DNA of 64,000 nt from Nitrospirota bacterium (GTDB taxonomy: Bacteria; Nitrospirota; UBA9217). Within the stretch, counting starts at the first letter, position 1. Each line of letters starts with the position of its first letter. Below, piece after piece: positions 2,139 through 6,420 of this stretch. Location: positions 384,001-448,000 of the forward strand of contig CAVWHO010000020.1 of the NCBI GenBank assembly GCA_963754875.1. The letters are read 5' to 3'. The translations under genes and the position numbers were made by a program. A model generated the notes under the pieces. The model saw only the letters and a list, made by a program, of their open reading frames with translations. It searched no databases and was not told the origin of the DNA.

Positions 2139-3543
2139 ATGAAAACATTCGACCTTATCATTATCGGAGGCGGAGCCGGTGCATTCGGGGCCGCCATTCG
2201 TGCAGACGAACTCAAGGCGAATACGGCCATGATCAACTCAGGCCTGCCTCTGGGCGGTACCTGCGTGAACGTCGGCTGTGTACCGTCAAAGACGCTTCTC
2301 TACGCGGGAGAAATCCTGCATCTTGCCCGGAGTCACGGCATCCCCGGCATTGAACTTGCGGTGAAGAACTTCGATTTTAAAAAGGTTGTTCAGTATGATC
2401 TCGCCATCGTCGAAAAGCTTCGCACTAAAAAAATACAGCAAGGTGTTGAAAGACCTCGAACACGTCACCTTTCTTGAAGGACGTACGAAGTTTATTTCTC
2501 CGCATGAAGTCGCGGTAAACGGCGAGACGATCCGCGCTCAAAAGTTCATCATTGCCACTGGTTCAACTGCCACGGTGCCGCCTATCGAAGGCATCCGGGA
2601 CGCGGGATTCCTGACCCATATCGAAGCGCTCGCGCTCGAGAAGCATCCGAAAGAACTTACTATCATCGGCGGCGGACCTCTCGGGCTTGAATTCAGTCAG
2701 ATGTACTCGCGCTTCGGAACAAAGGTCACTCTCCTGAAACGTTCCCCGTCGATCTATCCCATATCCGAAAGCGAGCTGACGGAACGACTCGCGCAGATCC
2801 TTGCTCAGGAAGGGATCACCATCAAAAGAGGCGTTCAGATCAGGAAGGCTTGGGTGGAAGGGCGCAGGAAGAACGTATCATTCACGTTGGACGGGATAGA
2901 GGAGCGGGTATCGGCTGATGAAATACTACTTGCCTCAGGAAAGACGCCGAACACTTCCGGTCTCGGGCTTGAAACCGCGAAAGTCAATCTCGACAAAAGA
3001 CGGGCAATCGTGGTCAATGAATTCCTTCAGACCTCCAGTCCCGAAGTGTTTGCGGCCGGCGATGTGGCCAACCTTCCGTTGCGCCTTGAAAACACGGCAG
3101 GCCATGAAGGAACGCTCGCGGCGGAGAACGCTTTAACCGGCTCGCGAAAAACCATCGACTATGACACCGTTCCTTACACGATATTCACCGATCCTCAGCT
3201 TGCCGGAGTCGGTCTTACGGAAGAAGAGCAGATGAAGAGATTCGGCACATGCATGTGCCATACCGTATCGTTTACGGATGTTCCGAAAGCAATTATTACG
3301 AAGCGCACTGAAGGGCTGATCAAGATGGCAATCCACCCGAAGACAAAGCAGATAACCGGGGTTCATATCCTTGCGCCTCACGCCGGTGAGATTATTGCCC
3401 AGGCGATGATGTTAGTTAAGAACAAGAACACCATCGACGAAGTGGTGGATTCTTTGCCTATATTCCCGACGTTTTCTGAGTCAATTAAACTAGCGGCACT
3501 GTCGTTCACCAAGGATATATCAAAGCTGAGTTGCTGCATTTAA
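2139..3543 (+). CDS. merA: Mercuric reductase lacking the NmerA domain (one extra A in the A7 run at 2427-2433)
   Basis: GGGAGA FAD motif, GGTCVNVGCVPSK redox centre, TIFTDPQLAGVG, C-terminal vicinal cysteines (LSCCI). Confidence 0.85.
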
Positions 3544-3568: not shown

Positions 3569-3886
3569 ATGAAAACAACATCGTGGATACCTTCTCTTGC
3601 AGGTTTTTTCTCTTTTGCCGCTGTTGCCGAGGCTCAGGCACAGACCCAAGGCTACGGCCCATGGCCGGGAATGATGGGCTGGGGGTGCGGCATGGGGTGG
3701 CCTTGGCCCATGATGTTTATATTCTGGATTGTTGTTATCGCCGGGATCGTTTATTTTGTGCGGTCGGCGCATAAGGGTCGCGGTGGCGCTCCGGAAGAAT
3801 CGGCCCTCGAGATCCTTAAAAAACGATATGCCAAGGGCGAGATCAGCAAGGATGAATACGAGAAAATAAAAAAGGATATTTCATAA
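3569..3886 (+). CDS. SHOCT-domain membrane protein with Gly/Met-rich segment
   Basis: Signal peptide, GMMGWG segment, TM helix, ALEILKKRYAKGEISKDEYEKIK SHOCT motif. Confidence 0.85.
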   Translation: MKTTSWIPSLAGFFSFAAVAEAQAQTQGYGPWPGMMGWGCGMGWPWPMMFIFWIVVIAGIVYFVRSAHKGRGGAPEESALEILKKRYAKGEISKDEYEKIKKDIS

Positions 3887-3910: not shown

Positions 3911-4897
3911 TTGAAAATCGACTGCTATATATCACAAGGATGCGGTTCCGAGGAAGCGTTAAAAGAGAACATCGCCCGTGCTTTGGAAAATGAAAAGATT
4001 CAGGCGGAAGTAGGTATGCACCGGATTAGCGATGAAAAAGCGGCAGAATTGAAACTCAGCGGATCACCGTCCGTATTCATAAACGGCAAGGAACTGCAGC
4101 CATCGGGCACCATCGGGTTTTCCTGAAGGATGTTCAAGGACGAGTCCGGCAGACTCGGGAATGTGCCGTCAGTGGATACGCTGCGCAAGGCTATGAAGGA
4201 GCCGAATTGCGGGGCAGGGTGCACGCCTGCTATCGGCAAGACTAATATGAAGAGCCTCATGGATCAGATCGGGGCAACGGTACGAGGGAGACTGGCTGAA
4301 GCCAATCTGAGTCAATCTGAAAACGAGACGCGAAAGTTTATTCTGAAAGAGTTCGCCAGAACAGGCAATCCACCTGACGAGAAAACAATAGTCGAGGCAA
4401 TGAAACTGCCGTCCATCGAGTCGGTTCGCAGGTTCATCGAAAGACTGCACAAGGCGGACATCCTGACGATGGAAGGCGGGGAGATCATATCCGCCTACCC
4501 CTTTTCCGCAAAACAGACCCGTCACAAAGTGGTGTTCCCTGACGGTCACGAGATATACTCGCTTTGCGCGACAGACGCTCTGGGCATTCATTTCATGCTC
4601 AGAGAGAACATCGTTGTCCGGTCACGCTGCCCGGAGTGCGACGGAGAAATAAAGATCGAAGTGAAGGACGGTAAGATCGTCTCTTCCGTTCCGGATGGAG
4701 TGGTTGAATTTGTCAGCAGCGGGGACCACTGTGGATGCACCGCAAAGACCTTTTGCCCGTTCATGAACTTCTTCTGCTCGAAGGACCATCTTGAGAAGTG
4801 GCGGGAAAAGAACCCCGCCTCCGCTAACGGCGAAATGTACCAGCTTCAGCAGGTCCTGGAGCATGGGAAAAACATCTTCGGAGATTTTCTGAAATAA
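3911..4897 (+). CDS. merB: Probable selenoprotein: thioredoxin-like domain (GFS-U-RMF) fused to organomercurial lyase MerB
   Basis: ORFs 3911-4126 and 4130-4897 share a frame and are separated only by TGA-AGG; SECIS-like hairpin at 4141-4157; MerB motifs AYPFS, LCATDA, SRCP, FCPFMNFF. Confidence 0.8.
4131..4163 (+). promoter_or_regulatory. Bacterial SECIS-like stem-loop
   Basis: CGAGTC-CGGCA-GACTCG perfect 6 bp stem starting 14 nt after the TGA, with G in the apical loop; weak lower stem TGTTC/GAATG. Confidence 0.7.
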
Positions 4898-4922: not shown

Positions 4923-5282
4923 GTGGTGAGCAGAATAACAAAATCGGCTATTTTCATTGTGTTTTGCGCTCTGACGGTGATCTCGCTCTGTAAATCTGCG
5001 TCAGCATGCCAGGTGGACGAGTTTTACATGACGAAGGAAGGAGCTTTAGCCGCTTCTACTTCTGAGACATTAAATCTGGCGATCAAGCTCGAAGAATAAG
5101 GTAACAAAGAAAAGCTTGCAGACCTCATAAAGAGCGGGACTGTTCTGCGGCTGACAGACAACGCCAAGGTTCAGGTTCTGGAAAGATCCGTTGAATTCAA
5201 AACGCTCAAAATAAAGTTCCCGGATGGAAGTGATCCATATTGGGTAAAGGACGGCTCGTTGAAACAAATCAACTGTAATTAA
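4923..5282 (+). pseudogene. Small exported protein with an internal TAA stop
   Basis: GGAGG-preceded GTG, signal peptide, in-frame TAA at 5097-5099, frame continues (GNKEKLADLIKSGTV...YWVKDGSLKQINCN) to 5282. Confidence 0.6.
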
Positions 5283-5512: not shown

Positions 5513-5983
5513 TTATTTCTCTTTCCACATTCTTGCGTCAAAGACAAAGGGCATTGGGTCGCTAATGCGGATTTTCTTGAAATCGCGGTGAGCGGGATTG
5601 AGCAGATAGTTCCAACTTTTGGGAACCAGCACGGAGGGGACCCGGAAAACCGCTGTGTCCGCCTTCTTTGCCCAGGTAGAACCGATCTCTTTGGTTGAAT
5701 CCCTCGGCGGTTCGGCGGTCCAGTCATCGGGGAGATCGGCGCTCTTCAGCTTTTCAATAGGGACGCTGTCCGGAATCTCGATTTTATAGTACACGAACTT
5801 GATGTGAGAAGCGTCGAACCCCAGGTGAACGAACTTCTCCAGAACGGACAGGGCGATGGACTCGCTTACGTAAATGACGGGTATACCCTGGTGATGCCAT
5901 CGGCCGCTTACGCGGCGCGCTCCTTCGCCGGTAAACGCTTCCTTGGCACGCTTCGCTTTATCCAGGCGCCAGGCAGTGATCAC
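5513..5983 (-). CDS. RES-domain NAD+ phosphorylase toxin
   Basis: FTGEGARRVSGRWH, YVSESIALSVLE, VPSVLVP, NYLLNPAH motifs. Confidence 0.9.
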   Translation of the reverse strand: MITAWRLDKAKRAKEAFTGEGARRVSGRWHHQGIPVIYVSESIALSVLEKFVHLGFDASHIKFVYYKIEIPDSVPIEKLKSADLPDDWTAEPPRDSTKEIGSTWAKKADTAVFRVPSVLVPKSWNYLLNPAHRDFKKIRISDPMPFVFDARMWKEK

Positions 5984-6420
5984 GAGATAACCCCGTATTC
6001 AATGCGCCAGAGAAGGTCTTCAACCTCCTTTGCACCGGCTTCGGTATGCAGCAGATCAAGGGGTGTTTTACCGCCTAATCCCACCTGTTGACGACGAAGC
6101 CACTCCTTGGCTTTTTCCTCGTTCTCCAAGACCTCACAGGCGATCGAAAAGATCCTTGCCAGCCGGTAAAGCCGGTCGCTGGCGATGGCCGACAGGCGCT
6201 GACTCGGCGAGTTGCGGACTCGGGCCAGGGTTCGTTCGCTTACCTCGATTATGCCGGCAAAAATGGGAAGGGGAAGGTCCAGCAGGCCCCGGACGTGGTT
6301 GCCCGCTTTATAAGGGAACCCCTCGCGGATGAGCTTGTCCAAGTCCAGGGTGCTTTTAATTTTGCGTCCAAGAGATGTCTGTCCGCCAAGGACTGATACT
6401 ATATTCTGTTCGGTAAACAT
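5980..6420 (-). CDS. Xre/MbcA/ParS-type antitoxin
   Basis: HTH plus C-terminal WL..P/Q..GLGGKTPLDLL.TEAGA.EVE.LL.RIEYGV; 4 bp overlap with the toxin gene. Confidence 0.9.
   Translation of the reverse strand: MFTEQNIVSVLGGQTSLGRKIKSTLDLDKLIREGFPYKAGNHVRGLLDLPLPIFAGIIEVSERTLARVRNSPSQRLSAIASDRLYRLARIFSIACEVLENEEKAKEWLRRQQVGLGGKTPLDLLHTEAGAKEVEDLLWRIEYGVIS

Follow-up and report, generated by a model that had tools for sequence, protein, structure and literature searches.

[quoted passage not shown] In that outline SaoL carries its selenocysteine (Sec, U) as a CU pair at the site of MerB C159, whereas the fusion described below has a cysteine at this site, a predicted Sec in a separate domain, and a mer context. 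SaoL and SaoT had been put forward as comparators in a preliminary description of this DNA, and the comparison was not upheld, since the Sec is predicted in a DF-type domain and not in the MerB active site. Membership of SaoT (NF040730) was rejected with no match at E values up to 0.1 and no Cys within four residues of U72. Membership of SaoL (NF040728) was rejected with FCP instead of CU at the C159 site and with 90 bits against a cut-off of 140, which was the best NCBIfam score of the lyase domain.

The DF protein of the deep-Sep study (PMC12013277, NF049942) has the Sec/Cys column and a downstream SECIS in common with the present gene. As presented there, it came from Desulfosediminicola flagellatus and had no TGA-bearing homologues, whereas in the present analysis it was widely distributed among Nitrospirota and joined to MerB; the main text of that study makes no mention of mercury, MerB, fusion or Nitrospirota. 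DF and SaoL are listed as separate entries in a 2026 review (PMC13188914), the accessible text of a 2022 review contains no DF-MerB fusion, and fusion terms are absent from the main text of BSepDB. A description of a Sec-DF-MerB fusion was not found in the main texts covered. Already known are the DF selenoprotein-type domain, the MerB family and the Cys form of the fusion, and the Sec form was found in no description among these texts. In the text of the SAO preprint, Haft and Gwadz (2022) knew no mercury-resistance selenoprotein, and the design seemed a liability to them. The present fusion is not the first hint of Sec in mercury resistance, because NCBIfam now has a MerT/CopZ selenoprotein model.

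The lyase part of the fusion shares its fold with MerB (R831b, PDB 1s6l/3f0o) and Bacillus MerB2 (5c17), with TM values of 0.71-0.82 on the target, and has the four MerB signature residues C96, D99, C117 and C159 as given in PMC8261052. It differs from MerB by an identity of about 20%, the extra conserved C243, C274, C276 and C289, FCP in place of FCC, and the added Sec domain. With the NmerA domain of Tn501-type MerA, a two-ligand shuttle taking Hg(II) from MerB as described in PMC4525700, only the proposed role is common. NmerA has an HMA fold and is tethered to the reductase, whereas DF has a thioredoxin fold and is tethered to the lyase.

The features of the locus are presented in Table 1, with coordinates referring to the window, i.e. 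the whole stretch of 64,000 nucleotides that was analysed. The sole internal stop of the frame 3911-4897 was the TGA at residue 72, and ORF calling with translation table 11 split the frame into 71 and 255 aa. The preliminary description had taken the two ORFs for one frame broken only by this TGA, which was borne out with a readthrough product of 328 aa. It had also expected gene callers to split the fusion, and of 120 homologues listed from the databases, 80 were indeed annotated as starting at the Met just after the TGA.

Table 1. Coordinates of the features at the DF(Sec)-MerB locus in the window.
Feature	Position	Strand	Basis or remark
merA without N-terminal NmerA domain	2139..3543	+	frame broken at A7 run 2427-2433 in the assembly
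Small membrane protein with SHOCT domain, in the merA-fusion interval	3569..3886	+	same place in L038, L046, L072
Predicted single gene, 328-aa DF(Sec)-MerB fusion	3911..4897	+	TTG start after purine-rich run AAGGGGGAAG; stop codon TAA
DF-type thioredoxin-fold domain, aa 1-97	3911..4201	+	C5, C11, GSP (51-53), U72; NF049942 match
In-frame TGA, predicted selenocysteine 72	4124..4126	+	conserved TGA; TGC in actinobacterial fusions
Predicted bacterial SECIS, 6-bp stem and 5-nt loop CGGCA	4141..4157	+	conservation, consensus-model criteria
Variable linker, aa 98-112, with CGAGC	4202..4246	+	pLDDT below 50 for aa 100-112
MerB-family lyase domain, aa 113-328	4247..4894	+	Pfam PF03243, Foldseek, residue alignment
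Small, probably exported protein, no known family	4923..5282	+	TAA interruption at 5097-5099; follows the fusion in many loci

TGA at residue 72 was found in 34 of 34 DF loci of the Nitrospirota search and in 37 of 37 distinct in-frame fusions, two sets that overlap and consist of related sequences. The fusions were drawn from 29 + 72 fetched genome and metagenome loci, and the fusion-bearing loci were assigned to Nitrospirota. When column 72 was aligned, TGA was scored in 36 of the 37 fusions; in the damaged and misaligned copy L100 it was recognized by inspection. A search of 401 genomes of the phylum resulted in whole-protein matches at 11 places in 10 genomes, with one TGA each, and in many further matches covering the first 97 residues only, nearly all of which had the TGA. 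Of the 150 top-ranking profile hits (out of 1215), 75 had Cys at column 72 and 71 had no aligned residue there, while R, H, L and W occurred once each; 56 of these 150, by a loose pattern, ended in a GFS-like motif. TGC was present at this column in all five fetched actinobacterial fusions. Two of the three refutation checks proposed earlier came out in favour of readthrough here: Cys was found at the TGA column of homologues, and the TGA recurred in independent assemblies. Four DNA sequencing runs were found to hold related copies, one contig covering the whole stretch with 60 differences, and no RNA run was among those listed in this search; the copies, for which 40 of 310 difference rows were seen, were not used as TGA evidence. 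From the sequence comparisons it is very probable that the frame encodes a single selenoprotein in which the TGA is read as Sec.

The hairpin downstream of the TGA consists of CGAGTC (4141-4146), the loop CGGCA (4147-4151) and GACTCG (4152-4157). It starts 14 nt and its loop 20 nt past the TGA, and it folds as had been described. The fold energy alone did not stand out from chance (z = -0.33; 75 of 200 shuffles were as good), and hairpin stability by itself was ruled out as SECIS evidence by these shuffles. The conservation asked for at the outset was detected in the pairing, which was kept in 93.9% of the cells compared with 19-43% in slid controls (34 TGA loci, 33 distinct sequences). True covariation is thin, since only the outer stem pair varies on both sides (7 sequences). 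Silent sites were strongly biased within the hairpin: Glu was GAG in 30/30 cases vs 93/257 upstream in the same genes, Arg was AGR in 30/30 vs 43/99, and Leu was CTC in 30/34 vs 31/200, although these counts overstate independence because the sequences are related. The SECIS model given in PMC13188914 has a loop of 3-9 nt, a stem of 4-16 bp, G at loop position 1-2, a distance of 16-37 nt from the UGA, and MFE <= -7.5. The hairpin, with a loop of 5 nt, a stem of 6 bp, G as the second loop base, a distance of 20 nt and -8.4 kcal/mol, was within all of these ranges. Given the model and the silent-site constraint, the hairpin is predicted to behave as a SECIS.

The machinery for Sec insertion, which the preliminary description had wanted to see, was complete: selA, selB, selC and selD are all present in the genome, each over its curated cut-off. 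The selA, selB and tRNA-Sec genes are located on the window's own contig, the tRNA having the anticodon TCA, and the selD of the genome carries an in-frame TGA of its own. A second tRNA-Sec-like Rfam match was observed about 240 bases past selD (G000:C13:54979-55080), with 45.4 bits and a cut-off of 47.

The N-terminal domain was matched across the TGA by the NCBIfam model NF049942, DF family (seleno)protein (aa 4-94; profile 2-96 of 96), with 49 bits and an E value of 4.5e-13, which is under the cut-off of 70. The actinobacterial fusions scored 67 and 45 bits. The DF domain here is a related subfamily and not a cut-off member of NF049942. Pfam gave no DUF2703 (PF10865) match for the fusion, and many Cys relatives match this family near or below its cut-off. 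The DF structure, predicted with Cys in place of Sec, was thioredoxin-like, with a best Z of 8.2 and an rmsd of 2.9 over 77 residues, and thioredoxins filled the match list. C5, C11, GSP and U72 were invariant in the 20 aligned DF copies.

A distant second Sec-DF lineage with the motif GLG-TGA-RVY and its own downstream hairpin was found at L101:1553-1860, and also in L102 and L103. A third DF selenoprotein gene of the present genome, stand-alone and 40% identical, is located at G000:C13:84637-84936 (L073:5640-5936, - strand), where it follows an AhpD/CMD-like gene and a small ferredoxin-like ORF.

The length changes of the linker in intact fusions were whole codons (0, -1, -6). In the preliminary description, CGAGC and CGC had been pointed out as extra motifs, of which only the latter stood: the CGC pair (C274, C276) was kept in 13/13 fusions, as were C5, C11, C240, C243 and C289, not all of which had been mentioned there. 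CGAGC was rejected as a metal site, with C104 kept in 1/13 and C100 in 10/13 fusions. The lyase domain scored 103 bits with Pfam PF03243 (gathering cut-off 27), and its best Foldseek matches were MerB2 5c17 and MerB 3f0o (E 4e-14). In the alignment with 1s6l/3f2g, C219, D222, C240 and C282 corresponded to MerB C96, D99, C117 and C159, each being kept in 49/49 aligned rows; the earlier assignment of LCATD to C96/D99 and of FCPFMNFF to C159 was thereby confirmed. The ATG at 4247 coincides with the start of unfused MerB relatives. The domain remained under the MerB equivalog cut-offs, with 55.7 vs 200 bits for NF033555 and 65 vs 193 bits for NF009710. The C-terminal domain is predicted to be an organomercurial lyase of the MerB family. 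In the full-length model (pTM 0.64) the DF and lyase domains were not placed relative to each other.

An intact paralogous operon, merA-SHOCT-DF(Sec)-MerB-small protein, is located 72 kb away in the same genome (G000:C20:458373-461117; L072:6364-9502). It shares 86% DNA identity with the window over 4.6 kb, including a RES/Xre pair, and its fusion is 85% identical. The intact MerA paralogue (C20:458373-459764) exceeds the TIGR02053 cut-off. The merA frameshift and the stop in the downstream gene of the window stem either from errors in the assembly or from decay of the copy. The VOC-family gene (about 1629-2070) likewise seems to have a frameshift at an A run, and the RES/Xre toxin-antitoxin pair of the window lies at 5513-6420 on the - strand, both members being over their NCBIfam cut-offs. 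The protein downstream of the fusion has about 119 aa in its intact copy (L072:9146-9502), for which no Pfam or NCBIfam match was obtained, and it accompanies the fusion even without merA. An Atlas search with this protein resulted in unnamed clusters and a weak Sap1 lead whose recognition value was below the reliable range.

The host also has hgcA with the motif NVWCAAGKG, which we take to be the cap helix motif, and behind it an hgcB-type ferredoxin that ends in CC (G000:C16:598766-600050). In the 64 genomes of the family, with 21 candidates scored per genome, hgcA was over the cut-off in 52 and MerA in one. The presence of hgcA in 9/9 fusion genomes was not informative compared with this background of 52/64. 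Nitrospirae carrying hgcAB and merB were known already, according to the relevant text of PMC9948709.

In other genomes, the fusion was found in the gene orders merR-merT-merP-merA-SHOCT-fusion (L046) and merR-merA-fusion (L042). The MerA beside the fusion was without NmerA in 5/5 loci with a readable N-terminus. Among 13 species-level fusion genomes, 4 had merA next to the fusion. With the MerA of L042 as the query, no MerA orthologue was detected in 9 of the 13 (9 of the 10 others tested), the best matches having 30-34% identity; the completeness of the genomes searched was 84-100% where given. In addition, 12 loci had a plain merB beside an NmerA-less merA, with no DF match in the fetched flanks.

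The DF domain was also joined to other mer proteins. MerR-DF(Sec)-MerB was present in a single frame in L047:5587-6984 and L099:1441-2835, a MerR-DF fusion was represented by P0123, and in P0112 the order was reversed, DF following MerB and ending at the Sec column. Cys-form DF was fused to MerT+HMA (P0175), to MerB, and to a weak MerC match (P0257). In L101 a separate TGA-bearing DF gene was located between merR and merT in the operon merR-DF-merT-merP-merB. In L112:1-1528 a MerR-MerB frame was followed by the small protein and then by a separate DF gene. Among 20 DF(Sec) loci that had no intact lyase, ars-type clusters accounted for 8 (L022, L027, L028, L029, L030, L032, L033, L036), 3 lay next to merA, and 2 adjoined the MbdU selenoprotein. 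Partners in the ars-type clusters were a permease, an MTH895/ArsE thioredoxin, ArsR, ArsC or Acr3. Several genomes of the family also had remote MerB-like matches (18-29%) containing one or two in-frame TGA codons (G069:C1:2188379-2188972, G050:C14:4716-5255, G005:C3 and C2, and others), which are possibly split or SaoL-like selenoproteins.

Cys-form fusions were not found by an exact-word search in the range of 180-574 aa, but plasmid tblastn and the profile search detected them. In the tblastn search, 21 of the 146 matching records covered >=80% of the fusion; the 21 listed were all from Actinobacteria, and most were annotated as alkylmercury lyase family protein or merB. All five fetched fusions adjoined a gene for a MerR-type or heavy-metal regulator. 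WP_331724092.1, WP_006438313.1 and WP_149357616.1 have, like the present protein, DF followed by MerB in about 328 aa, with 29-31% identity, and their C11, C72 and MerB C/D/C align with the Sec fusion. Unlike it, they have Cys for Sec, no SECIS, no C5, and Asp at the C117 equivalent. In a lyase-domain tree of 40 rows, from which 8 duplicate loci and MerB matches that were shorter than 170 residues or held a stop had been left out, 14 Sec fusions nested among unfused archaeal, Geobacter and Dehalococcoidia MerB, apart from the Cys fusions (support 98/95). A single origin of the Sec and Cys fusions was not rejected when imposed as a constraint (p-AU 0.059). A separate origin of the two forms is favoured by the tree.

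The reading that we prefer is that the DF domain acts as a mercury shuttle. C219, D222 and C282 would bind R-Hg and protonate the carbon, as in established MerB chemistry, leaving Hg(II), which would have to be removed from the lyase by an outside thiol pair. The tethered DF domain would be this outside ligand, with U72 and C11 pulling Hg(II) off the active site. A selenolate is a stronger Hg ligand than a thiolate. The same difference is stated in the text of the SAO preprint (bioRxiv 10.1101/2022.07.06.499078), and according to PMC4525700, incoming thiol(ate)s are required to take Hg off MerB, a task that NmerA performs in vivo. DF would substitute for the NmerA domain that is absent from the neighbouring MerA and would pass Hg(II) to this MerA where present; where no MerA is encoded, it would give Hg(II) to cellular thiols or hold it. 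We assign a probability of roughly 0.45 to the shuttle as a whole, with DF stripping Hg(II) from MerB through U72/C11 and standing in for NmerA. It is favoured because of the repeated fusion of DF to mer proteins, the mer operon context, and the lack of NmerA in the adjoining MerA. The scores of the lyase domain under all three NCBIfam MerB-type cut-offs were counted against it. DF appears to be dispensable, because of the 12 loci without it, and the hand-off to MerA cannot be general, as most fusion genomes tested had no MerA orthologue. Also against the shuttle, 8/20 stand-alone DF(Sec) genes are in ars-type clusters vs 3/20 beside merA, a distribution that suggests a general thiol-metal or redox role of DF.

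The reading that survives best besides the shuttle has the same selenoprotein with DF as a thiol-disulfide oxidoreductase, which would reduce the cysteines of MerB, or ArsC in ars operons, and would not carry Hg. The thioredoxin fold, the placement of C11 where helix 1 begins, and the GSP motif are in agreement with such a role, as is the position of stand-alone DF copies next to MTH895/ArsE thioredoxins, ArsC and Acr3. A related DUF2703 protein of Rhodococcus BCP1 has been proposed as an ArsC reductant, as stated in PMC6514093. However, the usual site is without CxxC, C5 and C11 being six apart and the Sec 61 residues further on, and the fusions with MerR, MerT-HMA and MerC suit metal binding better. 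We regard the oxidoreductase as unlikely.

A different substrate is improbable. The lyase would then process a different organometal(loid), namely an organo-arsenic, -tin or -lead compound, or else a metabolic organometallic intermediate, and mercury would be secondary. Such a substrate has been proposed for SaoL, the top-scoring NCBIfam model below its cut-off, ArsM-like genes adjoin the fusions of L041 and L069, and MerA is absent from most fusion genomes tested. Against this, the four MerB signature residues are canonical, the lyase site has no CU motif, and fusions occur in true mer operons whose MerA exceeds its cut-off (L042, L046, L072).

A further reading is that the UGA mainly gates by selenium: DF would need Sec, MerB could in addition arise from an internal start at ATG 4130 or 4247, and the supply of lyase would be selenium-independent. 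An ATG at residue 74 was present in 31/34 TGA loci, and ATG, GTG or TTG at residue 113 in 22/37 fusions, this one included. Met74 was, however, equally common in stand-alone DF genes, where a restart would yield 26-40 residues. At residue 113 no start codon was found in 15/37 fusions, and inspection by eye gave no consistent ribosome-binding site before it; a conserved internal start at this residue was rejected, a start codon being present in 22/37 only. A gating role is considered quite improbable. A reading with two genes of 71 and 255 aa, in which the TGA would be a genuine stop or an error of sequencing, is very improbable: the usual database call, the nearby assembly lesions (the merA frameshift and the stop in the downstream gene) and the Trp at column 72 of one further database protein (P0122) speak for it, but a stop there would remove the last helix of the predicted thioredoxin fold, stand-alone DF copies conserve 26-40 codons past the TGA before their stop, and the codon in the DF loci and fusions examined was always TGA and never TAA or TAG, with Cys there in homologues.

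The fusion places a predicted selenocysteine inside ordinary mercury-resistance operons. Through its repeated fusion to four mer proteins, the DF family, which had no function, gains a testable role, and a widespread annotation error is corrected, in which 80/120 listed homologues start past the TGA. The Sec fusion is present in likely methylators, mostly without MerA, and since 52/64 searched genomes of the lineage carry hgcA, this bears on how metagenomes are read for both the production and the breakdown of methylmercury. More speculatively, and with considerable doubt, DF may be an overlooked component of mer (and ars) systems, a Se- or S-armed metal shuttle replacing NmerA. In hgcAB-bearing, MerA-less Nitrospirota, the Sec fusion might then enable a single cell to form methylmercury as well as degrade it, with Hg(II) parked on Sec and the net methylmercury output tied to the selenium supply.
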